Position numbers and translations under genes: made by a program. Shown piece after piece: positions 34,038 to 60,954 of a stretch of 64,000 nucleotides of DNA. Every line of letters begins with the position of its first letter. The stretch's first letter is position 1. Source of the stretch: Escherichia phage Sa157lw. The notes beneath the pieces are model-generated. The model did no database searches, was not told the DNA's origin, and worked only from the letters and a program-made list of their open reading frames with translations. Location: sequence record OK322699.1; one strand, given 5' to 3'.

Positions 34038-34044
34038 CTAAATA
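34038..34044 (+). promoter_or_regulatory. CTAAATA late-promoter-like motif upstream of first tailspike gene
   Basis: The heptamer recurs 20-45 nt upstream of at least eight structural-gene starts; resembles T4 late promoter TATAAATA. Confidence 0.3.
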
Positions 34045-34077
34045 CCCCTAGATGACATGAATACATTTAGGGGTATT
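34041..34077 (+). repeat. 10-bp-stem hairpin (aataccccta / taggggtatt) at gene junction before first tailspike
   Basis: Perfect complement; variant of the element before the second and third tailspike genes. Confidence 0.6.
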
Positions 34078-34081
34078 ACAA

Positions 34082-37000
34082 ATGGCCAACAAACCAACAC
34101 AGCCTCTTTTCCCTTTGGGTTTAGAAACTTCGGAGTCTTCGAACATAAAAGGCTTCAACAACTCCGGCACCATAGAGCATTCCCCTGGTGCAATATTGAC
34201 GTTCCCTGAAGATACTGATGTTGCGGGTCTCCCATCTTCTGTGCGTTACAATCCTGATAGTGATGAATTCGAAGGTTATTACGAAAATGGCGGGTGGTTG
34301 TCTTTGGGTGGTGGCGGAATACGCTGGGAAACGCTCCCATACGCTCCCTCCAGCAATCTGTTAGAAGGGCGCGGCTATCTCATTAATAACTCCACTGGGA
34401 CTTCTACGGTGGTTCTTCCTTCCCCTACGCGCGTTGGTGACTCGGTTACAATTTGTGATGCCTATGGTAAATTCGCGACGTATCCATTGACCGTATCTCC
34501 AGCGGGAAATAACCTGTACGGCTCCACCGAAGATATGACGATATCCACCGATAACGTGTCGGCGACTTTCACTTGGTCTGGTGCTGAGCAGGGTTGGGTT
34601 GTTACATCTGGTGTTGGCCTCGGTCAAGGTCGTGTGTACAGTCGAGAGATTTTCACTCAAATTTTAGCATCTGATACAAATGAAGTGACTCTCAACATCC
34701 CTCCGACAATTGTGGACGTGTACACTGATGGGAAACGCCTTACAGAATCCAAATATTCTTTAAATGGAAACGTAATCACTTTCGACCCTTCTTTACCTGC
34801 TGGCACTGAATTGCAGGTAATAGAATATACTCCGATTCAGTTAGGTACTGGCGGCGGGGGTTCGGGCGCTTCTGCAATCACCTGGATTTACAATGGCGGA
34901 TCCGCTATCGGCGGCGAAACCGAAATAACGCTAGACATCGTTGTAGATGATGTTCCGGCTATTGATATAAACGGGTCTCGTCAGTACAAAAATCTTGGAT
35001 TCACGTTCGACCCATTGACGAGTAAAATCACTCTGACGCAAGAACTGGAACCAGAAGATGAAGTTGTTGTGGTTATAAATGGGACACCAAACATTTATAA
35101 CCAGATCGATCGTTCTTTACAGGAAGTTGCTCGCGCCTACAATTTTACAAATGCTCAAGTTATTTTGAGCAACGATTATACTTCTGCACTGGATAATAAA
35201 GTCGTTATTTATGATACGACATCCCAACGTTCTTGGGGGATTCCATCTGGAATTCCAGCAGGTTCTACAGTGGTTTCCGTCAATGGGGATCAACTGAAAT
35301 ACAAAAATGGATCAACTGAAACCACTGTTACATTGGTGAGCGTACCAGGTAGTGCAGAGAAGTTGAAGAACGATCTGGCGTCGAACTCTGGCGCGGGCAT
35401 GTTGAAAACTTCTAGAGGTGATACCGTAGAAGAAGAATTGACTTTTATTAATCAGAATATGGTCGTTCAAATTTCAGATTTCGCGAGCCTTAGAACTTTA
35501 GTGCCAGCCACAGCGGGCATCCGAGTCAAATTGAAAGGTTATTATTCTGGTTCTGAAATCGGTGGCGGAGAATTCATTTCCGTCGCTGGTGATGCTGTTG
35601 ATGATGCTGGGATGATTGCTCGAGTGTCAAGCAGCTTTTATTGGAAGAGAATTATCGACAAACATATTACTCCTGGTATGTATGGCATCAAAGGGAATCT
35701 TCCAGAAGATCCGGCAGTGAAACTGAACGCTATGTTTACGGCTGCGGCTGCGGCTAACGCTTATGTCTTACTGAACGATGTTGATACTCTGGTCTGTAAA
35801 AGCCCTGTCGTGATCCCAGCACATTCATTAGTGTACGGCAACAAACGGACCATATTGAAACGTGATGCATCGTTGTCATATGCTAATGATTTCTTGACAA
35901 TTATGAATGATTCATATGTCAAGGGGATCTATGTTGATGGTAGCCGTTTAGATTCTCAGACTCCTCTAGAAGCAGTTTTGGTGCGCATCGCTGGGAATGT
36001 GACTATCCATAAGAGCGAGATCCGAAACAATGCTGGCTATGGCGTTGTTGGTAACGCAGTCCCTGGCATTCGTATCACCAAGAACATTTTTTCCAACTTC
36101 GCCAAAGGTTGTGTGGCTATGTTTGGCGACGGAACGGCGACGAGTGATGATCTGCAAATTAATGATAACAGATTCTTTAACCTGGGCGCGGGAACCATTT
36201 ATGTTGGCGGTTACTCAAACTTCCTTGTCGACAAAAACGTCGGAAGAGGCACTTACGTGGGTTCTCCAGGAAACCGTCTGTATGTTGTGACCAATACCAA
36301 CGGGACTATCACCCAAAGCGCTGGGCCAGATTTTGGGGCGCTGAAAACGGGTATGTTCTTTGTATTGCCTGGTGGTTCTGAACATATGATAACTGCTGTC
36401 AACAGCCTTACAAGTGTGACAGTAACCCCACCACCGCCGTCGAACGCCACAGTTCGTGCAATCGCAGGGACAGGGGATCTTCTGGGCATCCAATCATGCT
36501 CCTACGGCACCATCAGCCGTAACAACCTGACCGATTGTGTGACTTACGGAACTGGTGGAGGCACGATGGAGGGGAGCACTCTGGGTTGCAATTATGTCAC
36601 TTGGGAAGACAACTTCATCCGCAACACAGGTAAGAACGGAATCAACGTCGGGCAATCAGGTGCTGGGGTCGCCACGTGTTCTATCCTGAGGAACACTCTG
36701 ATACAGGTTGGTAACGGCGGTCAGGGTGTTGGCCCAGCGTATCTTCTGCCTTGGTTCGATACGGTAGGTATCGCTCTGTATCAGGGAAACCCAGGTTATA
36801 TGGCGAATATGGACGTCAGTGATAACAACGTCTCTACATGGTCTGGCGATCTGAATGACGGCGCTGCTTGGTTTGGTATGAGCGGTTGTACGGAAGCCAC
36901 TGTGACTTGTACAGGCAACAAATCTTCTGGTTATTCCGACGGCTATGTTCGTGGAGATATATTAGAAGTCACGTTGACAGGTTATGGTACAGGGGCGGCT

Positions 37001-37255
37001 GCGACTTCATTCGTTAGTGATGGTGAGTCTATACAGATAACCGTTCAAACAGGTACTTCACCAACAGCTTCTCCTTATTTTTCAGTGCGGAAGGCGATCC
37101 GCACCCGCCATCAACCGATGATAACGGCGCAGATCGTCACCACAACTGGGAACATGTCTCATTGTTGGGGTATGCAATCTAGTACAGCAGGAAACTGGAT
37201 GGTGGGTCAGAATACAACTCCTTCAGGGGTCACGACGTATTACGCAAAAGGGTAA
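34082..37255 (+). CDS. tailspike protein 1 (1057 aa; beta-helix-like repeats)
   Basis: First of four tandem large genes; N-terminal module resembles that of 39518-42283; periodic Gly/Asn/Thr-rich repeats suggestive of a right-handed beta-helix. Confidence 0.7.
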   Translation: MANKPTQPLFPLGLETSESSNIKGFNNSGTIEHSPGAILTFPEDTDVAGLPSSVRYNPDSDEFEGYYENGGWLSLGGGGIRWETLPYAPSSNLLEGRGYLINNSTGTSTVVLPSPTRVGDSVTICDAYGKFATYPLTVSPAGNNLYGSTEDMTISTDNVSATFTWSGAEQGWVVTSGVGLGQGRVYSREIFTQILASDTNEVTLNIPPTIVDVYTDGKRLTESKYSLNGNVITFDPSLPAGTELQVIEYTPIQLGTGGGGSGASAITWIYNGGSAIGGETEITLDIVVDDVPAIDINGSRQYKNLGFTFDPLTSKITLTQELEPEDEVVVVINGTPNIYNQIDRSLQEVARAYNFTNAQVILSNDYTSALDNKVVIYDTTSQRSWGIPSGIPAGSTVVSVNGDQLKYKNGSTETTVTLVSVPGSAEKLKNDLASNSGAGMLKTSRGDTVEEELTFINQNMVVQISDFASLRTLVPATAGIRVKLKGYYSGSEIGGGEFISVAGDAVDDAGMIARVSSSFYWKRIIDKHITPGMYGIKGNLPEDPAVKLNAMFTAAAAANAYVLLNDVDTLVCKSPVVIPAHSLVYGNKRTILKRDASLSYANDFLTIMNDSYVKGIYVDGSRLDSQTPLEAVLVRIAGNVTIHKSEIRNNAGYGVVGNAVPGIRITKNIFSNFAKGCVAMFGDGTATSDDLQINDNRFFNLGAGTIYVGGYSNFLVDKNVGRGTYVGSPGNRLYVVTNTNGTITQSAGPDFGALKTGMFFVLPGGSEHMITAVNSLTSVTVTPPPPSNATVRAIAGTGDLLGIQSCSYGTISRNNLTDCVTYGTGGGTMEGSTLGCNYVTWEDNFIRNTGKNGINVGQSGAGVATCSILRNTLIQVGNGGQGVGPAYLLPWFDTVGIALYQGNPGYMANMDVSDNNVSTWSGDLNDGAAWFGMSGCTEATVTCTGNKSSGYSDGYVRGDILEVTLTGYGTGAAATSFVSDGESIQITVQTGTSPTASPYFSVRKAIRTRHQPMITAQIVTTTGNMSHCWGMQSSTAGNWMVGQNTTPSGVTTYYAKG

Positions 37256-37265
37256 TATTGAATGC

Positions 37266-37272
37266 CTAAATA
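37266..37272 (+). promoter_or_regulatory. CTAAATA late-promoter-like motif
   Basis: Same heptamer, 34 nt upstream of ATG 37306. Confidence 0.3.
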
Positions 37273-37302
37273 CCCCATATTGGACATCCTTTATGGGGTA
37301 TT
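37269..37302 (+). repeat. 10-bp-stem hairpin (aataccccat / atggggtatt) immediately before tailspike 2 start
   Basis: Identical stem to the element at 39479-39512. Confidence 0.65.
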
Positions 37303-37305
37303 ATC

Positions 37306-39402
37306 ATGATTTCTCAATTCAATCAGCCACACGGCTCCACTTCAATATTTGTTAACAAACAATCTATCGCTCGAAATTTCGGTGTCAAAGAAGACGAAGT
37401 CGTTTATTTCACTGCTGGTATTGATCTCAGTGGATTTAAAGTAATTTATGATGAGTCTACCCAACGGGCTTATTCTCTTCCTTCGGGTATTGTTTCAGGA
37501 ACGACTGCGATAAGTCTGAACGAACAAGCCATCCTCACTCATTCCGCTGGCTCTGTTGACCTTGGGGAATTAGCAGTAAGCCGCGAAGAATATGTGACTT
37601 TACCTGGTTCTTTTAATTTCGGCCATACCATTAATGTGAAAAATGAACTTCTTGTTCACGATGATAAAAAATATCGATGGGATGGTTCACTTCCTAAAAC
37701 TGTCGATGCTGGCTCAACACCTGAAACATCTGGTGGCGTTGGTATTGGTACATGGCTGAGTGTTGGTGACGCAGCATTTAGACAGGAAGCCAACAAAAAA
37801 TTCAAATATTCAGTAAAGTTATCTGATTATTCTACATTACAGGATGCAGCGACAGCAGCCGTAGATGGATTGCTTATTGATGTTGACTACACTTTTACTG
37901 CAGATGAGAGTGTAGATTTTAGCGGTAAAGTTTTAATCATTGAATGCAAGGGAAAATTCATTGGCGATGGTATGTTGGTTTGGAATGGTTTGGGTGCGGG
38001 TTCAGTAATTAAGAAACCGCACATGCATACTAAAACTACGCCGTATACTGTTTACCGATTCGATGCAAACGGTAATTGGGTTACAGACCCAACACAAGTT
38101 CTGGCATCTGTTCAGCAGCGTTTGGATGTTGGATATAAGCCAAATATTAACGATTTAGATATTTGGGACGACCTTCCTGATAATGTAAAAAATCAGGTTG
38201 CTGGTGCTACTTTGCGAATAATGAGCGGCGATAATATCATCGTAGAGAACCCAGAAGCTACATTTGGTGGTTATCTATTTACTTTATGTAATAGGATTCT
38301 TGTTAAGAATCCACGCAATTTTATTGCTTTGGAATCGGGCATTACATTTGAGAACCATCATACAACTGCATGGGGTACTGGCAACTGGGTTGTTGGGGGT
38401 GAGATTAAATATGGCTCTGGTTCCGCTGTACTGTTCATTCGCAATGATGGTGGTACAGACCATGATGGTGGAGTAAGGGATTTAATATCCTATCGCGTTG
38501 GAGAATCTGGTGTTAAAACCTATCAAAATGAAATAGGTGGTCGTTCAGCCAGGAACTACCGTTTAGTGTTCGACAATATAACTACAATCCAGTGTTACTA
38601 TGATGGTATTGATGTTAATGCTGACACAGGGTCGCCAACTGAACGTGTGGATGACTACTCACTCGCAGAGTATCCATGGTTCCACCTACCTACTCAACAT
38701 ATCATCCGTAATATTATTACTCGTGATTGTATGGGGATTGGTGCTTGGTGGGATGGTCAGAAAAATATTATTGATAATGTTGTTACTTATGAGGCCCATA
38801 AGGAAGGCGTCTTCGATAGGGGTACTAACAATGATATTACTAACATTACTGTAGTAGGTGCGAATAAGGATTTAACTAACCTAAATCAGATTACCTGTGA
38901 GGGAGGTAGTAGACTTCGTGGTATTAACATCCATGCATATACTACACAAGGTTACGCTATATACGCTCCGTCTTCAGAAGTAAGTAATGTTTCCTGTGCT
39001 GGTTCCGGTACTAAGAAATTACTATGTACCTATATAAGCGATATTCAGGGAGGTAATATCAATGTTCAGCATAGTGCCAACCAAATGACACTTGCAATGC
39101 AACCTGCTATGGGTGGTACTACAAACCCATCTTTGCTTATGACGGCAGATTGCCAGGTTGCTACACCAGGGGGTGAGGCAAGTATTGTCAAGCTTTCGGC
39201 AATTCAGGAGGGTGTACGTGTAGGTGAGTTTCAGCTTAACCGCTTAGGCTTTAAGCATATGAGTATACCTGCTGCCCCTTTACAATTACCAGAGAGCGCT
39301 CTGGAACATAATTCATCTATAGGATTCTTCTTCGGAAGTGACGGAGCATTGAGGTTGCTTGCTAAAAAACCAGATGGAAGTTATGTAACATACACACTTT
39401 AA
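37306..39402 (+). CDS. tailspike protein 2 (698 aa)
   Basis: N-terminus MISQFNQPHGSTSIFVNKQSIARNFGVKEDEVVYFTAG...YDESTQRAYSLPSGI parallels that of 42338-44128. Confidence 0.7.
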   Translation: MISQFNQPHGSTSIFVNKQSIARNFGVKEDEVVYFTAGIDLSGFKVIYDESTQRAYSLPSGIVSGTTAISLNEQAILTHSAGSVDLGELAVSREEYVTLPGSFNFGHTINVKNELLVHDDKKYRWDGSLPKTVDAGSTPETSGGVGIGTWLSVGDAAFRQEANKKFKYSVKLSDYSTLQDAATAAVDGLLIDVDYTFTADESVDFSGKVLIIECKGKFIGDGMLVWNGLGAGSVIKKPHMHTKTTPYTVYRFDANGNWVTDPTQVLASVQQRLDVGYKPNINDLDIWDDLPDNVKNQVAGATLRIMSGDNIIVENPEATFGGYLFTLCNRILVKNPRNFIALESGITFENHHTTAWGTGNWVVGGEIKYGSGSAVLFIRNDGGTDHDGGVRDLISYRVGESGVKTYQNEIGGRSARNYRLVFDNITTIQCYYDGIDVNADTGSPTERVDDYSLAEYPWFHLPTQHIIRNIITRDCMGIGAWWDGQKNIIDNVVTYEAHKEGVFDRGTNNDITNITVVGANKDLTNLNQITCEGGSRLRGINIHAYTTQGYAIYAPSSEVSNVSCAGSGTKKLLCTYISDIQGGNINVQHSANQMTLAMQPAMGGTTNPSLLMTADCQVATPGGEASIVKLSAIQEGVRVGEFQLNRLGFKHMSIPAAPLQLPESALEHNSSIGFFFGSDGALRLLAKKPDGSYVTYTL

Positions 39403-39416
39403 TTTATCTTGAGCAA

Positions 39417-39445
39417 AAACCCCGCTTTGGCGGGGTTCTTATTAT
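39417..39445 (+). terminator. intrinsic terminator (aaccccgc-tttg-gcggggtt)
   Basis: GC stem then T-rich run after stop at 39402. Confidence 0.5.
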
Positions 39446-39475
39446 ACCTTTGTTCATAAATTTTATTAGTTCAGA

Positions 39476-39482
39476 CTAAATA
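39476..39482 (+). promoter_or_regulatory. CTAAATA late-promoter-like motif
   Basis: Same heptamer, 36 nt upstream of ATG 39518. Confidence 0.3.
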
Positions 39483-39512
39483 CCCCATATTGGCAAATCC
39501 TTATGGGGTATT
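39479..39512 (+). repeat. 10-bp-stem hairpin (aataccccat / atggggtatt) immediately before tailspike 3 start
   Basis: Same element as 37269-37302 with a different loop. Confidence 0.65.
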
Positions 39513-39517
39513 TTCAA

Positions 39518-42283
39518 ATGACCAGAAATGTAGAAGAATTATTCGGCGGCGTAATCACAGCTCCCCACCAGATTCCTTTCACGTATAAATCAAATGTCGG
39601 TGGAGAAACTTTCATTTCTCTACCTTTCTATCCTGTCGCTGGTGTTGTCACAATTAACGGCGGGGTGCAAGTTCCGTTAGACAACTTCGAAATAGACGGG
39701 AATACGTTAAACCTCGGGCGCGCATTGTCTAAAGATGACGTGGTTTATTGCCTGTTCGACAAAATCCTTTCACCAGAAGATACTTCTAAAGGTATTCGAA
39801 TATACAAATTTCAAGCCGTGGGTGGAGAAACTGAATTCACGCCTGACTTTACTTCTTATGGTGTCCAGTCTCTTTATATCGGTGGTGAGTACAAAACTCC
39901 TGATATAGAATATTCATACAACAGTACGACTGGGAAAGTTTCCTTACAAACTGCGCTGACTGCAGGGGTGTGGGTTGTTGCGGAGATGTCTGTTAAACAA
40001 CCGAATATCAGTCCGGCGTTCGATCGCAGTATCCAAGAAATTGCCCGTTCGGCTAACGTAAAAGACTCTGAAGTCATTGTCAGCACTGATACCATATCTT
40101 TACTCGACGACAAGAAAGTTGTTTATGATTCAGCGGCGCAGATTATTTATGGTTTACCAACTATCCCTGATGGTTCAGTGATTTCTTCTGTTAGTAATGG
40201 GCAACTTACTTATAATCCAGGTAATGTTGTAGTGGATTTGTTGCCTTTAGAAGATTCATTTATTAATGTGATAAACACTCTGGGGCGCAATGATGGTGCC
40301 AAGTATATCGGAGAATGCCATTCTGTTGCTGATCTCAGGAATACTGAACCCACTATGGATGGACAACGCATTATTCTTAAGCAACACACTGCGGGTACTC
40401 TTCTTGGTGGAGGGGTATTCCGTGCGTTAATTGATGGTACAGGAAAGACTGATGATAACGGCACTGTGATCAAAACTGTTGGAGGCGCAGCCTGGTTACG
40501 TGTTAATGCTGATAGAGTTAACCCATTCATGTTTGGTGCTTTGGGCGGTTCTAATGATGATACTATTCCAGTACAATCTTGTGTGGACAGTGGTAAGGCC
40601 ACACAATTAACTGGTGTACATTACGTTAGCAATATCCGGTTAAAATATAATACGTCGTCTATTTATGGGTCTGGATTACATTACTCCAGGTTGCATCAGT
40701 TGCCTTCTGCTACTGGGAATTGTATTACCATAAAAGATACATGCTCCCTTATTGTATTAGACTCCTTTGGGGTATATGGCACAGGTGCACAACAAGGCAC
40801 ATCATTTACTGCGGGTACAACAGGTATCTATATAGAAACTCCTTCAGGTCTCTCAGCTGATTATCCGTTCCACACTACCGCAGACCCAAGACGCGACTTG
40901 TGTATTTCTAAGGTCCATATAGCAGGTTTTGATGAATATGGGTTAAATATTGATAGTGGTAACTTTAGTGTTACTACAGATTCTCTTTTAGTCAACCACA
41001 TCAATCAGGTGGGCGTCCGTTGTGCTACTACTGATTGGACTTGGACAAATATCCAGGTTAATACCTGCGGTAAACAATGTCTGGTTCTTGATGGTTGTGG
41101 TAATGGTCGTATTATTGGTGGTAAATTCATTTGGGCTAACTGGCAACCTTATGGTACAGTAGGACAGTTCCCAGGCATTACTATTAATAATAGCCAGAAT
41201 ATGGTTATTAATGGTATTGAGGTACAAGATTGTGGCGGGAATGGCATTGAGATTAGCGATTCATATTCAATTTCCATGAACGGATTGAACACCAATCGTA
41301 ACGGCATCAACGCTAACAACACTTTCTACAACATCGTATTTAACAAAAGTGATGCAGTTATCAACGGATTCGTAGGACTCAATTATGCCGCGAATAGTGG
41401 TTCAGGTGCTAACTCTAGTGCGGGCAATTTTCAGTTCCTGTCTAATGATTGCAGCGTCACCATTAATGGTGTGGTTGAGACTGGTTATATGGGCATTAAC
41501 TTTATTGGTGATAACAATATTATCAACCCCACAAATTCCGACCTGAGCATTAACGGATTGGTTAATTATTCCAAGACTGGTTTGCAAACCATGAACGAGA
41601 CCCCTACATTTGATGGTGTTAGCACTACACCTGTTTATGTAAGTGTCCCATCTTCTGTAGGGCAAGTAAATGGTCTGAGACTATCACAAGCCAACAAAGA
41701 TAAATTACTGTACTCAAGAACAGCAGGTCCAGAAGGTATTACCATGGCTGCTGTTGTAGTACCTACCATATCTGGAGCTGAAGTATTTAACTTCATGGCC
41801 ATTGGTTCAGGGTTTAGTGATACATCCAACAGTCTTCATCTTCAATTAGTTATAGACGCTTCCGGAAAACAAACAATTGCTTTGCTATTGGGGGGCGATG
41901 GTACAACCCAAATTTTATCTGGGGATTTACCTAACGACCTTAAACTACAAAGTGGTGTGCCATATCATATAGCTATTGGTGCTAAACCTGGATATTTCTG
42001 GTGGAGTATTCTTAATATTCAGACGGGTAAGAGAATCAGACGGTCATTCCGAGGCGCTTATTTAGCTGTACCATTTAATTCTATATTCGGATTAACTTCT
42101 TCATTAACATTCTTCTCGGATAGCAATGCTGGTGGGGATGCCTGTTCTGGTGTAGGTGCTAAAGTGTATGTTGGTATGTTCTCTTCTGAGAATGATTATG
42201 TAGCTTCACGGTACTACAACCTGATTAATCCTGTAGACCCTAATAAGTTAATTAGTTACCGTATATTGGATTCTTCTATTTAA
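39518..42283 (+). CDS. tailspike protein 3 (921 aa; start at ATG 39518 after the hairpin)
   Basis: ORF-track start 39503 lies inside the hairpin; by analogy with 37306 the ATG at 39518 is preferred. Confidence 0.7.
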   Translation: MTRNVEELFGGVITAPHQIPFTYKSNVGGETFISLPFYPVAGVVTINGGVQVPLDNFEIDGNTLNLGRALSKDDVVYCLFDKILSPEDTSKGIRIYKFQAVGGETEFTPDFTSYGVQSLYIGGEYKTPDIEYSYNSTTGKVSLQTALTAGVWVVAEMSVKQPNISPAFDRSIQEIARSANVKDSEVIVSTDTISLLDDKKVVYDSAAQIIYGLPTIPDGSVISSVSNGQLTYNPGNVVVDLLPLEDSFINVINTLGRNDGAKYIGECHSVADLRNTEPTMDGQRIILKQHTAGTLLGGGVFRALIDGTGKTDDNGTVIKTVGGAAWLRVNADRVNPFMFGALGGSNDDTIPVQSCVDSGKATQLTGVHYVSNIRLKYNTSSIYGSGLHYSRLHQLPSATGNCITIKDTCSLIVLDSFGVYGTGAQQGTSFTAGTTGIYIETPSGLSADYPFHTTADPRRDLCISKVHIAGFDEYGLNIDSGNFSVTTDSLLVNHINQVGVRCATTDWTWTNIQVNTCGKQCLVLDGCGNGRIIGGKFIWANWQPYGTVGQFPGITINNSQNMVINGIEVQDCGGNGIEISDSYSISMNGLNTNRNGINANNTFYNIVFNKSDAVINGFVGLNYAANSGSGANSSAGNFQFLSNDCSVTINGVVETGYMGINFIGDNNIINPTNSDLSINGLVNYSKTGLQTMNETPTFDGVSTTPVYVSVPSSVGQVNGLRLSQANKDKLLYSRTAGPEGITMAAVVVPTISGAEVFNFMAIGSGFSDTSNSLHLQLVIDASGKQTIALLLGGDGTTQILSGDLPNDLKLQSGVPYHIAIGAKPGYFWWSILNIQTGKRIRRSFRGAYLAVPFNSIFGLTSSLTFFSDSNAGGDACSGVGAKVYVGMFSSENDYVASRYYNLINPVDPNKLISYRILDSSI

Positions 42284-42337
42284 AAATATACCCCTCTTCG
42301 GAGGGTATTTACTAGAGAAAAACAGGAGATTCTTATT

Positions 42338-44128
42338 ATGAATCCGCAATTTGCTCAACCGAAAGGTTCTACTTCAAAAGAAACGAACAAAGATAGCATT
42401 GCCCGTAAATTTGGGTGTAAAAAGTCGGAAGTCGTTTATGCCAAAGCAGGACAGTCCTTGTCTGGTTATAAAGTGATCTATGATAAGGTGTCTCAACGTG
42501 CCTATTCTCTTCCTTCTAACATTGATGCTGTAACGGTCACCAGTTTAGTTGACGGCATCCTTACGCACTCTGGAGGCACCGTAGATTTAAATGAATTGGC
42601 AATGACACGCCGCGAGTTTATTACTTTGCAAGGAGACTTTGTTTCCGGTGTTACCGTCAATGCTAAGCATGAAGTGATCGCATACGGAAATAGCCGATTC
42701 CGTTGGGACGGGGATCTGCCGAAAGTTGTTCCCCCTAATTCAGAACCTGTCATACCAGATTGGGTTAACGTTGATGCCAACCCAGCACTGTCTGAATTAG
42801 CGAAATCTGTTGGCTCGTCTCTGGTGGGATATAAACCAACGGGGACAACCACTACGACTGGTACGGTCAAAGGAAAATTGGATAGTTTTATTGATTTTGC
42901 AAATGACTATTGCGGTGGCCCAATTACAGGACAACCTGATCTCACTTCTCAATTACAACAAGCAATTATTGATGCTTTTAATTCTGGTATTGCCGACATT
43001 AAGATTGTTGGGGATTTTTATATATCTGGCATGATATTATGGTATCCAGGTGTTCGATTGATTGGTGGACGTTATGACTCTACATTGATACGCGTTTCCA
43101 ATACTTTCCCAGTGGGTGGGACAATGTTTCGTTCTTACCGTCCTCCACTGTGGGCGGCGGGTTGTCATGGTCTATCTCTTGAAAATGTGTATTTGGTAGG
43201 CCGCGCCGCCAAGGACGTTTATGGCATAGATATCAATGATGCATCTTATTTTAATCTTGAAGGTGTGCGTCTGGATCTGTTTGATAAAGCAATTTCTTTT
43301 AATAGATGGATTGATGAAACTCGTGTAGACACGAGCGGTACAATTACCTATCCCAACGCGCATAGTGCCGAAATGGGTGGCCAATCATATTTTGGTACAA
43401 TAACTCGTTGCTACGCAGGCAATTGCGTCACGTGCGTTGATTTTAATGGTGTGGTAAACCGTTGTACATTTATTAGCAACACATGGACAACTAGTGATCT
43501 GGCATATAATTTCAGCAACCCGCGTGGAGTTTATGAAACTAACACATTCATCACTTGTAATATTGAAGGTGTGAAGAGTGCATTTGAATGGTTCTTTTCT
43601 ATAAATTCACCATATCACAATGTGTGGATTAATACGAGCATCGATAACGGGAACCCAGATATCACGAGTTTAGCGAAAGATGGTGGTCGACAGACATTTA
43701 TTGGTTTAGCGATTTTCCCTTATGGAAACCCATCGTTGGTTAATTGGTATGGAATTAACCCCAATGGTCATCGGAGTACTGTCTTGGGTACTGATCTTGG
43801 GGAAAATTTACCAGAAGATCAGTTAAAAACTCAGGTTCGGGAAGAATTACACACTTTAACAGGTATTGCCAACAAGCAATGGGCTGGACAACAAGTAACT
43901 GAGACAATTCCCGCCAATGGTTACAAAGCATTGAATATTAGCGTGCCAGGATTAAAAGGTAACTCAGCAGTTATTGCTTCATTATCTGCCATATATCATG
44001 GTATTACAGTTGATGCCGCCAGCAACAACACTGGTACAGTTTCAGTAATAATAAGCAATTACACAGGTTCTCCAATTGATGTAAATGCTTACCTGAGTGT
44101 CACAGGCATAGCCAAAAGTTTCTTGTGA
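42338..44128 (+). CDS. tailspike protein 4 (596 aa)
   Basis: N-terminus MNPQFAQPKGSTSKETNKDSIARKFGCKKSEVVYAKAG...YDKVSQRAYSLPSNI homologous to that of 37306-39402. Confidence 0.7.
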   Translation: MNPQFAQPKGSTSKETNKDSIARKFGCKKSEVVYAKAGQSLSGYKVIYDKVSQRAYSLPSNIDAVTVTSLVDGILTHSGGTVDLNELAMTRREFITLQGDFVSGVTVNAKHEVIAYGNSRFRWDGDLPKVVPPNSEPVIPDWVNVDANPALSELAKSVGSSLVGYKPTGTTTTTGTVKGKLDSFIDFANDYCGGPITGQPDLTSQLQQAIIDAFNSGIADIKIVGDFYISGMILWYPGVRLIGGRYDSTLIRVSNTFPVGGTMFRSYRPPLWAAGCHGLSLENVYLVGRAAKDVYGIDINDASYFNLEGVRLDLFDKAISFNRWIDETRVDTSGTITYPNAHSAEMGGQSYFGTITRCYAGNCVTCVDFNGVVNRCTFISNTWTTSDLAYNFSNPRGVYETNTFITCNIEGVKSAFEWFFSINSPYHNVWINTSIDNGNPDITSLAKDGGRQTFIGLAIFPYGNPSLVNWYGINPNGHRSTVLGTDLGENLPEDQLKTQVREELHTLTGIANKQWAGQQVTETIPANGYKALNISVPGLKGNSAVIASLSAIYHGITVDAASNNTGTVSVIISNYTGSPIDVNAYLSVTGIAKSFL

Positions 44129-44133
44129 TCAAA

Positions 44134-44160
44134 CAACCCCGCTTCGGCGGGGTTTTTATT
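44134..44160 (+). terminator. intrinsic terminator (aaccccgc-ttcg-gcggggtt + T-run)
   Basis: Perfect GC stem, tttttattt after stop 44128. Confidence 0.55.
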
Positions 44161-44183: not shown

Positions 44184-44190
44184 CTAAATA
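44184..44190 (+). promoter_or_regulatory. CTAAATA late-promoter-like motif
   Basis: 33 nt upstream of ATG 44223; a second TATAAATG lies just downstream. Confidence 0.3.
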
Positions 44191-47200: not shown

Positions 47201-49061
47201 CACATACACGGACAAAACAACCACGACCATGACTGGCGAACAGATTGTGGAAACGCAGGTTATCCCATACATGCGCGAAATTGATATTTCTTTCGACGCT
47301 TCTGGGTTGCGACCTTTCACTCGCATGTATGCATTCTTCTCAGGTCGTGATGTGAATCTGTATTGCAAGCCGAATGGCGGTAATTTTGGTGACCCAATCA
47401 CCACTGATGCCAATGGCGCAGTCAAAGGCGTGTTCCGCGTTCCTCAGAACGATACGATCAAGTTCAACACAGGTGACAACGTGTTCCGCTTAACGGATAG
47501 CCCTGTTGACAGTAAATCTGCAGATGATACGCTGACCAATGCTGAAATTGTTCACAAGTCTTTCGGTAAGAAACAAGGGATTCAAAAGACCTTTGTCAAC
47601 ACTCGAGTTCTGGGTTATACCGCAAGCACCAGCACCGAAACCAGCACTTCTGAAGTTGTGGTCGATCAATGGCGTGATCCAATTGCCCAATCGTTTATGG
47701 TGGCAACTAAGATCGGTGGTGAATATATCGAAGGCGTGGAAGTATTCTTCTCCACCAAGTCACGTGATGTTCCGATCACCCTGGAAATTCGCGAGATGGA
47801 GAATGGATTACCGTCCCATACCGTCATAACTCGTAAAACTTTGAACCCGTCTGAAGTGACGATCTCTACAGACTCTTCCGGCGGAACGAAGTTCACCTTC
47901 GATTATCCGGTGTACTTGCAAGCATCGACTGAGTTTGCTATTGTTTTGTTGGCGAATACTCAGGATTACAACGCGTATATCGCGGAAATGGGCAAGAAAA
48001 ACCTTTTGTCCAACGAATATATCGCCAAGCAGCCGTATACAGGGGTGTTCTTCACTTCTTCAAACGGTTCAACATGGTCTCCCAACCAGATGGCAGATAT
48101 GAAGTTCCGTGTTTATCGTTGTAACTTTGCTGCTGGACAGAACGTTGTAACATTTGATCCGAAACTTGGACCGAAACAACGTCCGCTGGGATTGAACACT
48201 CTCAACTGTGTGAGCGGGTCTTCTGTCGTGACCGTGTTTGCGCCTGGTCATGGTTTGGTTGCTGGGAACAATGTTACTCTGTCTGAATTGACAGGTGGCT
48301 GTGGATTTACTCCTGAACAACTTAACAAAACATTTACCGTGACAGATGCGAGCTATACTTCATTCAAGATCGATGTCGGTTCAGCGGCAGACAGCAACGG
48401 GCAAATCGGCGGGGATAATGCTTCATTCTTGGGCAATTATCTGGTTGACATGTTCTATGCCAGTGTCACCAATTCAGCTCTGGAAGGTTCAATTCTGAAA
48501 TTGGAATATCGCTATCGCGATGCTACTTCCAATTCTATGTCTGATTGGGCTGAATTTGAAACTGACACTGACGTGGCGTTGCCGACTGAAGGGATCTATC
48601 GTCAGGTTGGGGATTTCCAGATCCGAGCCACCATGACGCGCAGTGAAAACAACGTGTACACCGCTCCAATGATTGATGGCGATGACCTGAGCGTAATCTT
48701 CAACTCATACGGCGTGGATCCATTTGAAGATGTCTTCAAATATGTGACAAAAGACATCGGATTTGATAACCCATGTTCGACTGTGAAGTTGTTCTTTGGT
48801 GCAATGCTCCCATCTCAGTCTTCTATGAAGGTGCAGGTGAAACTTCTTAGAGCAGGTCAGGAGATGGATAGTGTGGCTTGGGAAGATGTTACTCCAACGT
48901 CGCCTCTGGTCAACGACGGTTCTACATTCTTTGAATATGAATACGACAAGACTGTGGCGAGCAATAACCCGTTTGTTGGCCTGAAAGTCCGAGCGCTTGT
49001 ACGGGGGAACCGCGTTGCTCCTCCATCATTCAAAGACTTCCGTCTTATTGCTCTGGCATAA
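44223..49061 (+). CDS. large virion structural protein (1612 aa); putative baseplate or tail fiber component
   Basis: Single uninterrupted ORF between tailspikes and neck genes; function inferred from position only. Confidence 0.55.
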   Translation: MQSTNLNRRPYWDDWNPGKRFSRILFRPMPIKVQTRELNQMQTILQDQIEKLGNHLFKDGSMVIPGGLTITNAAVSMKFTLAGGTEFTDLEGITELYVLGKDNNAKARVLSLERDLSAPDTMLAILEMTEVGNADGFHVNDNLYFQTYDVNDNFIRIGYGIAAAVTGSIVARMTKGVYFIRGMFLDVDDATLIVDKTSNTSSHRVGFKVTETIVTESEDESLYSNAQGTINSKAPGAHRLRIDLVLSRFDYDAVVEDFVELAKVRDGKIQSMVTQSTYNILEDTLAQRTYETNGDYNVSTHQIDIREHLKVNNNGGVFNAADGGDESKFVSVMKPGISYVRGRRIENVGEELVIVDKARDTDVLNNTPVAVATGNYLVTKNSKGVPVISRTVRYKLLNASGAAQATALCISAERNSTEFRLYMRDLVVTGDASTITKVSYEESGITMFSAELESNQFNQSSMVDLIFSLPVFGVKTLAPTGSVDINYTVLRTYKVTLDSSGSGSISAPLGYSFSPEFSLYSSAKSDGSEAQFDISGSLSLTGSPVGSALQISLGSGNANQSINLLALMIRTTATIKTKTITETTESVTFTSQTSRPLANHDGWKLVSVKNDTGADVTSSFTLDGGQRDAGYYKANLLSTAGAISGTYTVVYQYFAHSSGDFFSADSYTSMDYKDIPNYTSSTSGAVYGLADSLDFRPKITNGTSDTDMVRPNTAVILDTEYYLPRIDAIYLADNGVFGVARGISSNNLASPAIPANSMRLYELLIPPYTPNIDDIQIRTIDNRRYTMRDIGKLETRISNVEYYTSLSQLESSAMTQQVFDPITGNPRFKNGIAADPFKDFRLIDDLSEDWMGSIDTENGRLRPFVQQNAVDMTPVGWNKVMDGMVVCNYTPEISVNQEYATTTINVNPYAVFNWEGFLKINPTTDYWFENYYVAPRVINETINTRGTVQEGSVYGTWRTVSVSDRVWEPHGAGGVWWGYRYRTTVSARDVTTYTYTDKTTTTMTGEQIVETQVIPYMREIDISFDASGLRPFTRMYAFFSGRDVNLYCKPNGGNFGDPITTDANGAVKGVFRVPQNDTIKFNTGDNVFRLTDSPVDSKSADDTLTNAEIVHKSFGKKQGIQKTFVNTRVLGYTASTSTETSTSEVVVDQWRDPIAQSFMVATKIGGEYIEGVEVFFSTKSRDVPITLEIREMENGLPSHTVITRKTLNPSEVTISTDSSGGTKFTFDYPVYLQASTEFAIVLLANTQDYNAYIAEMGKKNLLSNEYIAKQPYTGVFFTSSNGSTWSPNQMADMKFRVYRCNFAAGQNVVTFDPKLGPKQRPLGLNTLNCVSGSSVVTVFAPGHGLVAGNNVTLSELTGGCGFTPEQLNKTFTVTDASYTSFKIDVGSAADSNGQIGGDNASFLGNYLVDMFYASVTNSALEGSILKLEYRYRDATSNSMSDWAEFETDTDVALPTEGIYRQVGDFQIRATMTRSENNVYTAPMIDGDDLSVIFNSYGVDPFEDVFKYVTKDIGFDNPCSTVKLFFGAMLPSQSSMKVQVKLLRAGQEMDSVAWEDVTPTSPLVNDGSTFFEYEYDKTVASNNPFVGLKVRALVRGNRVAPPSFKDFRLIALA

Positions 49062-49113
49062 ATAATGTTGAAAGGTGGGCGTAAAGCCCACCAAACCAAT
49101 AGAGGATAAAGAT

Positions 49114-50426: not shown

Positions 50427-50429
50427 GAG

Positions 50430-50457
50430 AAGGCGGGATAACCCGCCTTTCTTTTTA
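50430..50457. terminator. bidirectional intrinsic terminator (aggcggg-ataa-cccgcct)
   Basis: Between convergent genes 49674-50426 (+) and 50455-50667 (-); T-run on plus, A-run upstream. Confidence 0.5.
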
Positions 50458-50667: not shown

Positions 50668-50728
50668 TTATCAATTCCTCAAAAGAATTAATGATTGACT
50701 AAATACCTTCAAAATTGAGGGTAAAGTC

Positions 50729-51370
50729 ATGGCTACTTCAAAATATTTCAACTATACAGCACACCAAGGTACTCAGAAATTAATTGACGACTTGGTGGTC
50801 GAGATGATACAACTACGTGGGATTGACGTCAAGTATATCCCACGTTCCATCGTTGAAAAATACCCAATTTTAAACGAGGCTGAACATAAATTCGACCAGG
50901 CGTTCGATATCGAAGTATACATGCAAGATTACCAAGGCTTTAACACCCAAATGTGGGAGAAGTTTGGCGGTATTCAATTACAAGATGAAGTGACGTTCAC
51001 CATTGCTCGTCGCCGTTTTTCGGAAGTGATTGGTAATGGGCCAGGACTTGAGCAGATGCCTCAAGAAGGTGATTTGATATACCTCCCAATGGCGAACAAG
51101 ATATTCAAAGTGAATAACCCGAATAACGACGAAGAATTTATGCAATTCGGTAAATGGTACACATATTCCTTACCGTGCACGTTGTTCCAATATGGTAATG
51201 AAGATTTTGATACTGGTGTATCTGAAATTGACGACATCGATAAACGTTTACAAGATCTAGACGGCGATGGTGTCTATAAAGATGCCAGTCTACAGACAGA
51301 TAACCAATTTGCGGACGAAATAGAGAAAGATCTTTCGCCCAATAAAATGAAGATAGACTTCGGGGAATAA
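50729..51370 (+). CDS. putative neck protein (T4 gp14 position)
   Basis: Synteny: between gp13-like and terminase genes; CTAAATA motif at 50699-50705. Confidence 0.5.
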   Translation: MATSKYFNYTAHQGTQKLIDDLVVEMIQLRGIDVKYIPRSIVEKYPILNEAEHKFDQAFDIEVYMQDYQGFNTQMWEKFGGIQLQDEVTFTIARRRFSEVIGNGPGLEQMPQEGDLIYLPMANKIFKVNNPNNDEEFMQFGKWYTYSLPCTLFQYGNEDFDTGVSEIDDIDKRLQDLDGDGVYKDASLQTDNQFADEIEKDLSPNKMKIDFGE

Positions 51371-54948: not shown

Positions 54949-54955
54949 CTAAATA
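54949..54955 (+). promoter_or_regulatory. CTAAATA late-promoter-like motif
   Basis: 43 nt upstream of tail sheath ATG 54998. Confidence 0.3.
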
Positions 54956-56899: not shown

Positions 56900-56928
56900 A
56901 ACCCCGCTTCGGCGGGGTTTTCCTTTAT
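56900..56928 (+). terminator. intrinsic terminator (aaccccgc-ttcg-gcggggtt)
   Basis: GC stem and T-rich run after stop 56893. Confidence 0.55.
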
Positions 56929-56949: not shown

Positions 56950-57408
56950 ATGATATACGCATACAAAATTGAAATGGTTTGTAATGGAAAGGTCTACATC
57001 GGTGTGACCAATGACCCACAACGAAGATATGATCAGCATTTTGCGAATGCCTTTCATCATGGCGTCCAAAGTGAATTGTATGACGCCATGCGTAAGTATG
57101 GAACATCTGGATTTACTTTCGTTGTAATTGCTCAGACCGATGAAGTCCATAAATGGGAATTAGAGAAGCAACTCATCGCTCAATATAATTCTTATGAGAT
57201 GGGTTACAACATGAATAAAGGCGGTAATGATGGAAGTCATATGCTGGGTAAAACTGCAGCAAAATTGACATCCACAGGTGAACACATTGGTCTTGTTTCT
57301 CTCATAGATCCCCGTTGGGAATTGTGTGAAATCGAACCTGTTTCAAGTAATGTTCATCATAGTTTCGATCTTTCTTCTATGAAGATTAAAAGATTGACGA
57401 CTAATTAG
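56950..57408 (+). CDS. free-standing GIY-YIG homing endonuclease (152 aa)
   Basis: IYAYKIEMVCNGKVYIGVTNDPQRRYDQH is a GIY-YIG core; inserted between sheath and tube genes that are adjacent in T4. Confidence 0.7.
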   Translation: MIYAYKIEMVCNGKVYIGVTNDPQRRYDQHFANAFHHGVQSELYDAMRKYGTSGFTFVVIAQTDEVHKWELEKQLIAQYNSYEMGYNMNKGGNDGSHMLGKTAAKLTSTGEHIGLVSLIDPRWELCEIEPVSSNVHHSFDLSSMKIKRLTTN

Positions 57409-57438
57409 AATTGTGTACTCTTATTTGGAGATATAAAA

Positions 57439-57972
57439 ATGGCGACAGTCAATGAGTTTCGCGCAGCCATGTCACGAGGGGGCGGCGTACAACGCCAACA
57501 CCGCTGGCGTGTGACTGTAAACTTTCCTTCTTTTGTTGCTGGTTCCGACACAATTCGCGACGTGTCCTTGCTGGCTGTAACTACCAACACCCCGACAGGT
57601 CAGCTGGGTGAAATTCTGGTGCCCTGGGGTGGTCGTGAACTTCCATTCCCAGGCGACCGTCGTTTCGAAGCACTGCCTGTAACATTCATTAACGTTGTGA
57701 ACAACGCGCCGTACAACGCATTTGAAGTGTGGCAGCAATTCATCAATGGTAGTGAAAACAACCGTGCCAGCGCGAATCCAGATGATTATTTCCGTGATAT
57801 CATCATGGAGCTTCTGGATGCGAATGACAATGTCACCAAGACATGGACTTTGCAGGGTGGCTGGCCTCAAAACCTCGGCCAATTGGAACTCGATATGTCT
57901 GCGATGGACTCTTATACACAGTTCACCGTCGATCTGCGTTATTTCCAAGCCGTGTCAGACAAATCTTTATAA
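57439..57972 (+). CDS. tail tube protein (T4 gp19-like)
   Basis: C-terminal TKTWTLQGGWPQNLGQLELDMSAMDSYTQFTVDL vs T4 gp19 TKEIEIKGLWPTNVGELQLDWDSNNEIQTFEVTL. Confidence 0.85.
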   Translation: MATVNEFRAAMSRGGGVQRQHRWRVTVNFPSFVAGSDTIRDVSLLAVTTNTPTGQLGEILVPWGGRELPFPGDRRFEALPVTFINVVNNAPYNAFEVWQQFINGSENNRASANPDDYFRDIIMELLDANDNVTKTWTLQGGWPQNLGQLELDMSAMDSYTQFTVDLRYFQAVSDKSL

Positions 57973-58039
57973 TGTCCTCGGTGCTGGGGGAATCATATTC
58001 CCCCTCACTAATTACAAGAAAATGTTGAGGACTTAGATC

Positions 58040-59722: not shown

Positions 59723-59763
59723 AGTTCAACTAAATATAGAAAATTAATTCGGAGATCAAAATC

Positions 59764-59934
59764 ATGAGCGCAATTGATATCGTTCGTGCAGTAATTGACG
59801 GTGACACTGAAACTGCTGTTGCAGAATGCAACATGGAACTTGATGCACGTAGTCAAGAACTATTGAACCAAGGCACAGCATATGTTCTGGATTCTATCGC
59901 AGCCGATATGAATTCAAACAACAACGGCCAGTAA
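59764..59934 (+). CDS. small protein (56 aa) at prohead-core position; below ORF-track cutoff
   Basis: Manual ORF with CTAAATA motif at 59730-59736 upstream. Confidence 0.3.
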   Translation: MSAIDIVRAVIDGDTETAVAECNMELDARSQELLNQGTAYVLDSIAADMNSNNNGQ

Positions 59935-59942
59935 GGAGATGC

Positions 59943-60260
59943 ATGATGGAAATCACAGAGATCGCCACGTTCGCTGATTTCCTGGCCTCTCGTATGGACG
60001 AGCAGCGAGTCATCGATAAAGTGAACGCTCGTGGTAAACGCCGCCGCCGCTTGAAATGTGCCCCTGGGTTCAAATTGTCGGCTGATGGTTCACGTTGTGA
60101 AGTTATGGACGCCAGCGAACGTCGTGTTCGCAAGATCGGCAACCGCAAAGCCCTCCGCTCTAAAAAGCGTATGGGAATGGGCTATCAACGTAAAATCGAG
60201 CGCCGCAAGAAAAAGGCTATGAAGTTCCGCAAAATGATGGGACTGAGTAAGAACAAGTAA
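59943..60260 (+). CDS. basic small protein (105 aa), possible prohead core/internal protein
   Basis: Arg/Lys-rich (KRRRRLK, RRKKKAMKFRK); sits between portal and prohead protease. Confidence 0.4.
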   Translation: MMEITEIATFADFLASRMDEQRVIDKVNARGKRRRRLKCAPGFKLSADGSRCEVMDASERRVRKIGNRKALRSKKRMGMGYQRKIERRKKKAMKFRKMMGLSKNK

Positions 60261-60267
60261 GGAGTTT

Positions 60268-60936
60268 ATGATGAAACTGTTGCGTGAGATCACAGCGATA
60301 GGGAAGGATCTTCAAATCGGTGAGGCCACAACCTCAACTGGTGGGAAGGCCATGTTCATCGAAGGTCCGTTTGTGATGTGTAACCAAGTCAACCGTAACG
60401 GGCGTAACTATGATCTACAGAAAGTGGGTATTCCTGCTGTCGAAGCATACGACAAAGAGTATATCCAAGATCGTCGCGCAATCGGTGAAGTCACACATCC
60501 TGACTATCCTTTCCCTAATTTAGTGGAAGCTGCGCTCAAAACCGAATCCCTTCGATGGGAAGGCACTAATGCCATCGGTCGGGCGAGAATTTTAAACACA
60601 CCAAAAGGCCAAATCATTCGTGCATTGGCCGAAGCAGACTTCAATCTGGCCGTATCTACTCGTGGCCTGGGTGAGACTAAGTCGGTAAGCGGTTATGATG
60701 ATGTTCAGCCTGGCTTTATGCTTACCGCCGTTGACGCAGTTGACCGTCCTTCTGGACAAGTTTGTTATGTTAAGGCTGTGAGTGAATCTGTTGAATGGCA
60801 GCTGGACGAGGCTTCGGGTATTTGGATGCCTCGTGATGTTAAAGGGAAAGTTGTAGACCAGTTGGTGAAAGCCAATATCCAGGTTGAAGACGATTTCCTG
60901 CGCCGCCTTGATGCAGCATTGAATCATCTGGGCTGA
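60268..60936 (+). CDS. prohead core protease (T4 gp21 position)
   Basis: Synteny and size (222 aa). Confidence 0.55.
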   Translation: MMKLLREITAIGKDLQIGEATTSTGGKAMFIEGPFVMCNQVNRNGRNYDLQKVGIPAVEAYDKEYIQDRRAIGEVTHPDYPFPNLVEAALKTESLRWEGTNAIGRARILNTPKGQIIRALAEADFNLAVSTRGLGETKSVSGYDDVQPGFMLTAVDAVDRPSGQVCYVKAVSESVEWQLDEASGIWMPRDVKGKVVDQLVKANIQVEDDFLRRLDAALNHLG

Positions 60937-60947
60937 ATTTCAGCTCA

Positions 60948-60954
60948 CTAAATA
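60948..60954 (+). promoter_or_regulatory. CTAAATA late-promoter-like motif
   Basis: 29 nt upstream of scaffold gene ATG 60983. Confidence 0.3.

Follow-up and report, generated by a model that had tools for sequence, protein, structure and literature searches.

CTAAATA as a probable late promoter core in a Kuttervirus, with hairpins at the ribosome-binding site of a subset of late genes

The heptamer CTAAATA recurs upstream of virion genes in a 64,000-nt stretch of the genome of Escherichia phage Sa157lw (record OK322699.1; the whole of this stretch is termed the window below). Our analysis indicates that it is the -10-like core of the phage late promoters, and that a subset of these are coupled to hairpins that would hide the ribosome-binding site (RBS); we put the probability of this explanation as a whole at roughly 85%. 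The motif and its interpretation as a late promoter are both sound, and both are already published for this phage group, so the motif as such adds nothing new to the Ackermannviridae and Aeh1 literature. The coupling to hairpins, which is of a known kind, is a statistically solid addition that accounts for the cCcc tail of the published motif, and is possibly a new point. We infer promoter activity, the start site and the effect on translation by analogy with the systems discussed below.

Position, conservation and probable recognition of the CTAAATA motif

Megablast comparison places the window in Kuttervirus (i.e. a Vi01/AR2819-like myovirus of the Ackermannviridae). Over bases 34000-42000 it matches Salmonella phage AR2819 (MW021753.1) with 100% identity, and over bases 40000-64000 the type phage Vi01 (FQ312032.1) with 99.5%. 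The whole AR2819 genome, assembled with 218 annotated coding sequences, was used for genome-wide counts of the motif.

There are 15 copies of CTAAATA in the window, compared with 6.67 +/- 2.5 in dinucleotide-preserving shuffles, none of 100 of which reached 15. The eight sites of the initial annotation are all present on the plus strand, 23-42 nt before the starts named there; the gaps from motif end to start are, in order, 37, 33, 35, 32, 23, 42, 27 and 28 nt. Copies that it missed are located at 30176(+), 22171-22177(-) and 21693-21699(-), the two on the minus strand preceding minus-strand genes by 26 and 32 nt. Three copies in the window are plainly internal or antisense (13077-, 30970- and 42059-), and that at 26558- is ambiguous. 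Its description of the motif as often aCTAAATAc holds loosely: seven of the nine plus-strand copies are preceded by a, while the following base is c in five and t in four, and the exact 9-mer occurs four times. The full 11-mer CTAAATAcccc is found at 34038, 37266, 39476 and 22177(-), and the 7-mer core at the remaining sites (Table 1).

The association with gene starts that was proposed for the window is borne out genome-wide. In AR2819, 14 of the 23 copies are sense-upstream (i.e. 15-60 nt before a start), a location comprising 3.2% of strand positions (p=7e-16). The motif is not equally frequent within coding sequence, since 15 of the 23 copies lie in the non-coding 6.3% of the genome (p=3e-13). 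Two more copies that are nominally coding precede better-supported ATG starts, in the baseplate-wedge gene and the gene for a UvsW-type helicase. The motif often comes directly after a canonical terminator, at the head of a transcription unit, and the genes served include those for baseplate, tailspikes, neck, sheath, tube, portal, scaffold and capsid.

The first position of the motif accepts A and T and never G, while no substitution is accepted at positions 2-4 and 6-7. ATAAATA is sense-upstream in 7 of its 18 copies (p=8e-7) and TTAAATA in 4 of 15. CTAAGTA (2 of 4) and CTAATTA (3 of 8) serve the capsid, tube and portal genes. Substitutions beyond these four gave no enrichment.

An extended consensus was obtained from 60 non-redundant promoters, which were chosen by the 7-mer, so that the 7-mer itself is invariant by selection. 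No upstream position is conserved in more than 48% of these sequences, the strongest being an a directly before the C (29 of 60), and no conserved upstream box or -35-like element was found among them. Downstream, A occupies the sixth base past the motif (position 13 from the C, the +1 predicted by the T4 rule) in 50 of the 60 (p=3e-16) and the base after that in 36. Judged from the sequences, the A at the predicted +1 would look like a preferred initiating nucleotide.

The motif is maintained in relatives sampled along a gradient of tail-sheath identity, for eight of which ~20 kb around the sheath gene was analyzed. These are Dickeya phage XF4 (87% identity in the sheath), Serratia phage phiMAM1 (74%), three uncultured contigs (67%, 64% and 53%), Vibrio phage BX-1 (51%), a Vibrio phage K397-like genome (48%) and Delftia phage phiW-14 (42%). 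Gene order is kept across the eight structural modules, and in nearly all of them CTAAATA lies 20-45 nt before the neck, sheath, tube, portal, small head, scaffold and capsid genes. Together the modules contain 62 sense and 4 antisense copies, 50 of them at 15-60 nt before a called start. The genome GC content of the relatives spans 40-57%, with the exact 7-mer still kept at orthologous sites. At neck-gene loci from IMG/VR the motif is kept in 19 of 19.

The genes for the late transcription factors lie outside the window, and were analyzed in the near-identical AR2819. The 256-amino acid (aa) 'sigma factor for late transcription' (gp122, at 90210-90980) matches phrog_234, 'late sigma transcription factor', with E=1e-53, and a profile of 15 such sequences matches T4 gp55 (PDB 7d7c chain F) over residues 12-159 with E=2.9e-7. 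The protein has no match in Pfam, NCBIfam or in pairwise comparison with the PDB, the link to gp55 being made by PHROGs and the 15-sequence profile only; by sequence it is strongly diverged from gp55. AR2819 also encodes gp33 (its gp158; PF16805, E=5e-19) and a sliding clamp (phrog_223, E=5e-65; the score for Pfam gp45-slide_C is below cutoff). We note that gp122 is ~70 aa longer than T4 gp55, and that an acidic F-S-L-E-D segment near its C-terminus aligns with S-F-L-E-D of the gp55 of the T4-like Aeromonas phage Aeh1. This segment may be a clamp-binding tail, as we assume from T4 gp55 and gp33. Homologs of gp55, gp33 and gp45 were described in phages CBA120, ViI and AG3 by Kutter et al. 2011, when the late recognition sequence had not yet been identified (PMC3184105).

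In the T4 structure the -12 adenine is flipped into a deep pocket of gp55, where it is stacked on Y97; the pocket is formed by N13, L54, R57, F86, H95, Y97 and T99 (PMC7892883). In profile and MAFFT alignments N13, R57, F86 and T99 correspond to invariant N21, R66, F93 and T111 of the Ackermannviridae protein, while the Y97 position holds an invariant W109 and the H95 position holds F. The substitutions at Y97 and H95 were considered as the cause of C at -12, an explanation that is weakened by Aeh1. Aeh1 gp55 (32712-33233) retains H and Y at these positions and shares the CTAAATA consensus, and therefore the pocket substitution alone cannot explain the C.

The initial annotation had likened the motif to the T4 late promoter TATAAATA with a different first base. 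The likeness stands for the TAAATA core; the base that differs is the -12 A of T4, which is now C, and not the first T. It also suggested a divergent specificity of the late sigma factor; a caveat is that the -12 position can hold A or T as well. Its reading of the motif as a late promoter is supported by a single -10-like element that is placed in the sense direction before virion genes and is conserved, by the A at the predicted +1, and by the encoded factors.

We suggest that host RNA polymerase carrying the phage gp55-type late sigma factor would recognize (a)CTAAATA at -12 to -6, and would start transcription ~6 nt downstream of CTAAATA, usually at A. Initiation would be helped by the sliding clamp and the co-activator gp33, as it is in T4. 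Leaders of 15-35 nt would result, leading into virion genes. Separate intrinsic terminators flank most units, the usual order being gene, terminator, ~35 nt, CTAAATA, N5, A(+1), leader, Shine-Dalgarno (SD) sequence and ATG.

Hairpins that adjoin the promoter and the ribosome-binding site

At some of the promoters the bases past the motif are complementary to the SD region, e.g. CTAA-ATACCCCAT-N15-ATGGGGTAT-tatcATG. The 5′ arm begins at the AATA of the motif or upstream of it, a geometry that fits if the +1 lies 6 nt past the motif. Folding of eight read-through RNAs from the window gives -8.6 to -19.5 kcal/mol, compared with 0 to -4 kcal/mol for the RNA from the predicted +1. The same layout is found elsewhere in AR2819, at the genes for a Holliday-junction resolvase, the UvsW-type helicase, a peptidoglycan-binding protein and others; indeed every AR2819 promoter with CC directly past the motif pairs with GG of the RBS region.

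The specificity of the pairing was tested with chimeras. For each of the 60 promoters the 5′ half comprised 8 nt, the motif and 5 nt, and the 3′ half everything from there to the ATG. Cognate halves gain -5.26 kcal/mol on average compared with -2.99 +/- 0.26 when permuted, and none of 20000 permutations reached the cognate mean. A ddG of <= -10 was found in 13 of the 60 cognates and in 2.1% of the 3540 chimeras (p=2.5e-10). In the Vibrio-phage relatives the neck, UvsW-helicase and post-VriC genes also have strong hairpins, which differ in sequence and register, and some of which enclose the whole motif in the 5′ arm.

Covariation was analyzed by scanning IMG/VR for CTAAATACCCC-N5-30-GGGGTAT. 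This pattern fixes the outer stem only, and the matches mix Ackermannviridae with unrelated terminators and chance matches; thus only the pattern-free positions of the inner stem were used. Among the matches listed, to which the following observations all refer, GGGGTAT is followed after 2-7 nt by ATG (i.e. GGGG is at SD distance). At least three further contiguous complementary pairs are present in 15 of 25 distinct inner-stem classes that have an ATG within 11 nt, compared with 4% complementary when the inner stems were shuffled (maximum 24% in 2000 shuffles). The paired sequences include tagatg/cattta, taatg/catta, aatga/tcatt, tgtgt/acaca, cat/atg and gta/tac. Hairpins of the 22177 type differ in their loops but preserve the stem, and in one case gtgt is changed to gtat, replacing U.G with U-A pairing. 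The covarying and cognate-specific stems indicate that the hairpin structure is maintained by selection.

In about one promoter in five, the last bases of the motif and the pyrimidine tail (cCcc) would form the 5′ arm of a stable hairpin, while the 3′ arm would comprise the SD sequence, GGGG(T)AT or GAGG, directly before the ATG. Promoters of this kind in the window are those of three tailspike genes, the neck gene, the baseplate-wedge gene and several probable late genes embedded in the minus-strand early region. RNA reading through from upstream would carry both arms, so that the RBS is hidden, whereas RNA started at the local late promoter would be without the 5′ arm and thus translatable. 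We tentatively propose, at slightly less than even odds, that the cCcc tail is the anti-SD arm of a conserved hairpin rather than a sigma element, and that through it the tailspike, neck, resolvase, helicase and other genes are translated solely from RNA initiated at their own late promoters.

Occlusion of the RBS next to a promoter may extend beyond late promoters. The AR2819 leaders at 72140-72180 and 121805-121847, which begin with GCTATAAT (an early-type -10 box), form hairpins too, pairing CTCC or CCTCT with an SD of GGAG or AGAGG.

Table 1. Probable promoter motifs and variants, adjoining hairpins and intrinsic terminators of the window. Energies (kcal/mol) are for folding of read-through RNA; ORF, open reading frame; TSP, tailspike.
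Feature	Position	Strand	Gene downstream	Hairpin	Energy	Remarks
CTAAATA	30176..30182	+	baseplate wedge, likely ATG 30223	30182-30218	-11.6	moderate hairpin; TTG 30172 of the ORF overlaps the motif
CTAAATAcccc	34038..34044	+	tailspike, start 34082	34041-34077	-19.1	predicted +1 ~34050; 5′ arm AATACCCCTAGATG starts inside the motif; 3′ arm CATTTAGGGGTATT with SD-like GGGG
CTAAATAcccc	37266..37272	+	tailspike, start 37306	37269-37302	-19.5	AAATACCCCAT ... ATGGGGTATT(A); ends 4 nt before ATG
CTAAATAcccc	39476..39482	+	TSP2/tail fiber, start 39518	39474-39515	-16.8	arms ATACCCCAT / ATGGGGTAT
CTAAATA	44184..44190	+	1612-aa DUF4815/VriC-like, start 44223			strong hairpin absent; terminator 44135-44154 just upstream
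CTAAATAcc	50699..50705	+	gp14 neck, start 50729	50696-50729	-14.3	inner stem 50704-50723, TACCTTCA/TGAGGGTA, covers SD GAGGG
CTAAATA	54949..54955	+	tail sheath, start 54998		-6	weak TCTTTC/GAAGGA pairing
CTAAATA	59730..59736	+	56-aa gene downstream of portal, start 59764			no structure predicted
CTAAATA	60948..60954	+	prohead scaffold, start 60983
CTAAATAcccc	22171..22177	-	minus-strand gene, start 22144	22173-22147	-18.0	arms ATACCCCATAC/GTGTGGGGTAT
CTAAATA	21693..21699	-	152-aa gene, start 21660			gap 32 nt; strong hairpin absent
ATAAATA variant	11314..11320	-	small minus-strand ORF, start 11283	11325-11282	-15.5	12-bp stem at 11316-11289; 3′ arm holds SD GAGGA
ATAAATA variant	25242..25248	-	minus-strand gene, start 25215	25245-25216	-8.6	AATAGATCT/AGGTCTATT
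ATAAATA variant	49058..49064	+	small structural gene, start 49114			upstream of terminator-like stem and the gene
CTAATTA, one mismatch	57401..57407	+	tail tube, 57439			31 nt before gene
CTAATTA, one mismatch	58008..58014	+	portal, 58040			25 nt before gene
CTAAGTA, one mismatch	61867..61873	+	major capsid, 61914			40 nt before gene; relatives have CTAAATA here
Canonical intrinsic terminator	44135..44154	+				AACCCCGCTTCGGCGGGGTT + T-run
Canonical intrinsic terminator	39418-39437					terminator scan
Canonical intrinsic terminator	42292-42305					terminator scan
Canonical intrinsic terminator	50429-50450					terminator scan
Canonical intrinsic terminator	56900-56919					terminator scan
Canonical intrinsic terminator	61836-61853					terminator scan
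Canonical intrinsic terminator	63256-63278					terminator scan

Counter-evidence and alternative explanations

Several observations weigh against the explanation proposed here, in whole or in part. The capsid, tube and portal genes have one-mismatch variants only, and some late genes have no motif nearby. In the literature we found no transcription-start, timing, transcriptome or in vitro study of Ackermannviridae or Kuttervirus, and promoter function therefore rests on analogy. Strong hairpins are found at just 13 of the 60 promoters. Taken together, the motif-bearing leaders of AR2819 show no significant excess of structure over its other intergenic leaders (Mann-Whitney p=0.15), and the number of promoter-to-SD pairs in minimum-free-energy folds is the same for cognates and chimeras (4.43 vs 4.36, p=0.43), although the energy, unlike the pair count, does separate the two. 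Because both class-wide tests are negative, the hairpin is a feature of a subset of the promoters. Lastly, the tailspike hairpins lie inside a late operon, where the rationale known from T4 (i.e. the blocking of early read-through) is not obviously applicable.

The hairpins that overlap promoters might instead be mainly terminators or 3′-end stabilizers of the upstream gene, with occlusion of the RBS an incidental result of overlaying the elements in a 40-nt spacer. We consider this unlikely. Stabilities of -15 to -20 kcal/mol are within the terminator range, and T-runs follow some of the hairpins (GGGGTATTTTC before the 39518 gene, GGGTATTTTT and GGAGGTATTTTC in AR2819), and a hairpin that follows the giant gene of one Vibrio-phage-like relative has GGAGGCTTTTT at its end. 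Most, however, have no T-run afterwards (the following bases being TATTAC, TATTATC, TATCT or TAAAGTC), and with loops of 9-17 nt, compared with 3-8 nt in an intrinsic terminator, or too poor a T-tract no promoter hairpin is called by the terminator scan. On this evidence a role as intrinsic terminators is not supported; the same scan does call separate canonical terminators (39418, 44135, 50429, 56900, 61836 and 63256). These close late units upstream of promoters, and the promoter at 39476 has both an upstream terminator (39418-39437) and a hairpin of its own.

CTAAATA could also be a signal in the RNA or a protein-binding site within late leaders, such as a processing site or the operator of a regulator, and not a promoter. 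The phage encodes homologs of RegA and RegB, which act on leader RNAs, the motif is always close to the RBS, and the literature search found no start-site data for the Ackermannviridae that would oppose such a role. Yet an operator linked to the RBS is expected at a fixed distance from it, whereas the distance from motif to ATG varies from 23 to 42 nt; what is fixed is the 5-nt spacing to the conserved A, as for a start site. The motif lies past terminators at the heads of transcription units, and the gp55, gp33 and clamp set is encoded. It matches the TAAATA core that is read by T4 gp55 (PMC7892883) and is identical to the Aeh1 late consensus (PMC1524935). We regard an RNA-level or operator role as improbable. 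Still less credible is a by-product of chance or composition in AT-rich spacers, or a weak -10 box for host sigma-70. The intergenic DNA is indeed AT-rich, and TAAATA shares three of six positions with TATAAT. But the exact 7-mer stands at orthologous sites in genomes of 40-57% GC with a strand bias of 62 to 4, the enrichment has p=7e-16, and the variant spectrum is specific (with no G at position 1, and positions 2-4 and 6-7 fixed). There is no -35-like conservation in the 60 promoters, and a sigma-70 scan of 30-50 kb gave no excess of sites (37 vs 42 expected). A chance origin is thus already contradicted by the statistics, and we retain the late promoter with its subset of RBS hairpins as the preferred reading.

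Genomic setting and comparison with known systems

The plus strand of the window from 30 to 64 kb encodes, in order, the baseplate wedge, tail fiber, four tailspikes, the 1612-aa DUF4815/VriC-like protein, gp13/gp14 neck proteins, gp15, terminase, sheath, tube, portal, prohead core, protease, scaffold and major capsid protein. The minus strand from 1 to 30 kb carries rIIA, DNA polymerase, small genes and a tRNA cluster. The window is a mosaic, with a tailspike region identical to AR2819 (100%) and sequence that is 99.5% Vi01 from TSP1 onwards; TSP1 (42338-44128) has 596 aa, the length in Vi01, compared with 744 aa in AR2819. Near-identical terminators, AACCCCGCTT[C/T]GGCGGGGTT + T-run, follow the TSP3, TSP1 and sheath genes (39418-39437, 44135-44154 and 56900-56919). 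The copy at 56900, which is called on both strands, has the same sequence as that at 44135. There are two homing-endonuclease genes, one of the GIY-YIG type between sheath and tube (56950-57408, +) and another in the early region (13100-14014, -); at these sites the relatives have different insertions or none.

Four tRNA genes (Ser-gct, Ile-gat, Asn-gtt and Met-cat) are clustered at 25598-26720(-), and the Rfam matches within the window are to tRNAs only. The CTAAATA copy at 26558(-) whose status is ambiguous lies between tRNA-Met and tRNA-Asn, and overlaps a match to TTCAAT-N14-TATGAT. The second published Ackermannviridae motif, the sigma-70-like and presumably early TTCAAT-N14-TATAAT, has seven copies in the window at one mismatch or fewer, compared with 0.63 expected. 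They are at 8245-8270(-), 11071-11096(-), 15483-15508(-), 19438-19463(+), 24424-24449(-), 26523-26548(-) and 29897-29922(-), i.e. all but one are on the minus strand, and the whole set falls in the early-gene half of the window. Within several of the spacers there is AAAGGGGGAT, a portion of a hairpin.

These elements have some value for annotation. The public records of Vi01 and AR2819 contain no promoter features, that of Vi01 having no regulatory features, and some starts have been misplaced so that they overlap the motif or fall within a hairpin arm. For the baseplate-wedge gene, the longest ORF begins at TTG 30172, overlapping the motif (as in the AR2819 annotation), with a better ATG at 30223. 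In the 39518 gene the first in-frame ATG, at 39503, is inside the hairpin arm ATGGGGTAT. Start-codon problems are therefore likely at both (30172 vs 30223 and 39503 vs 39518). Vi01-like phages are used as biocontrol and reporter agents for Salmonella and E. coli O157 with swapped tailspikes, and a tailspike cassette that is swapped without its 40-nt promoter/hairpin leader could be altered in expression.

The original description of CTAAATAcCcc is said to be the proposal of the genus Viunalikevirus by Adriaenssens et al. 2012 in Arch Virol 157:2035. The motif is quoted as a regulatory motif of Viunalikevirus/Ackermannviridae in the EspM4VN paper (PMC7283392), and 33 late promoters were annotated in a related phage in the LIMEstone1 paper (PMC3296691). 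The window sites have the same sequence in the same family, and the motif itself is no different. What goes beyond the published motif is that the cCcc tail, which is found at hairpin-type promoters only, is complementary to the GGGG(T)AT of the RBS and pairs with it, that an A is conserved at the predicted +1, and that the motif reaches to Vibrio-phage relatives and Delftia phage phiW-14.

The late promoters of Aeh1 have the identical heptamer, with C where T4 has A. The Aeh1 consensus is CTAAATA from -12, compared with T4 TATAAATA at -13 to -6, and Nolan et al. 2006 linked it to the diverged gp55 of Aeh1 (PMC1524935). Aeh1 differs in belonging to the Straboviridae and in having a gp55 with the T4-like H95 and Y97, in contrast to the F and invariant W of the Ackermannviridae protein. 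In the first 50 kb of the Aeh1 genome all eight copies of CTAAATA are on the gene-coding minus strand. With the T4 late promoter the elements share a single -10-like sequence with a TAAATA core before virion genes, no -35 box, and encoded homologs of gp55, gp33 and the gp45 clamp. They differ in C (sometimes A or T) instead of A at -12, in the absence of T at -13, and in a late sigma factor of 256 aa that is linked to the 185-aa T4 gp55 by profile methods only.

The hairpins too have precedents. In the T4 genes e, soc, 49, I-TevI/II/III and segB, and in Aeh1 mobE, a helix that sequesters the RBS has the late promoter in its 5′ strand; the long early and middle transcripts of such genes are untranslated, while the late transcripts that are without the 5′ strand are translated, and the Aeh1 mobE hairpin has been shown experimentally to sequester the RBS (PMC3014915, PMC2988022, and work cited there). 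We find the same heptamer and the same geometry in the leaders of Aeh1 mobE (43160-43230(-), atttgcaccctCTAAATAgtcgtgtacgttaagagggtgcaaatATG, -20.9 kcal/mol) and gene 49, encoding endonuclease VII (47579-47640(-), CTAAATAgagtcatactatcaaaatggaatgactctaATG, -14.1 kcal/mol). In these the motif lies in or adjoins the 5′ arm, and the 3′ arm covers the RBS. By analogy, the Kuttervirus hairpins most likely work like these T4 and Aeh1 leaders.

As in T4, the probable promoter is in the 5′ strand and the SD and AUG are in the 3′ strand, and late transcripts would be without the 5′ strand if they start at the predicted +1; the resolvase and UvsW-type helicase genes of AR2819 are so arranged. By comparison with T4, its rationale would apply directly to these two genes and to the promoters at 22177, 11320 and 25248 in the minus-strand early region. 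Unlike in T4, the arrangement also seems to extend into late operons, where it covers the neck gene and three tailspike genes in a row. For the consecutive tailspikes the read-through RNA would itself be late, so that translation of each gene would be tied to its own promoter. If this is true, the mechanism of T4 e/soc/49 and Aeh1 mobE extends to a whole class of promoters, and within late operons it would set stoichiometry and not timing. If the coupling is confirmed, gp55-type promoters of different families would share a translational gate of the T4 kind as a general element of their design.

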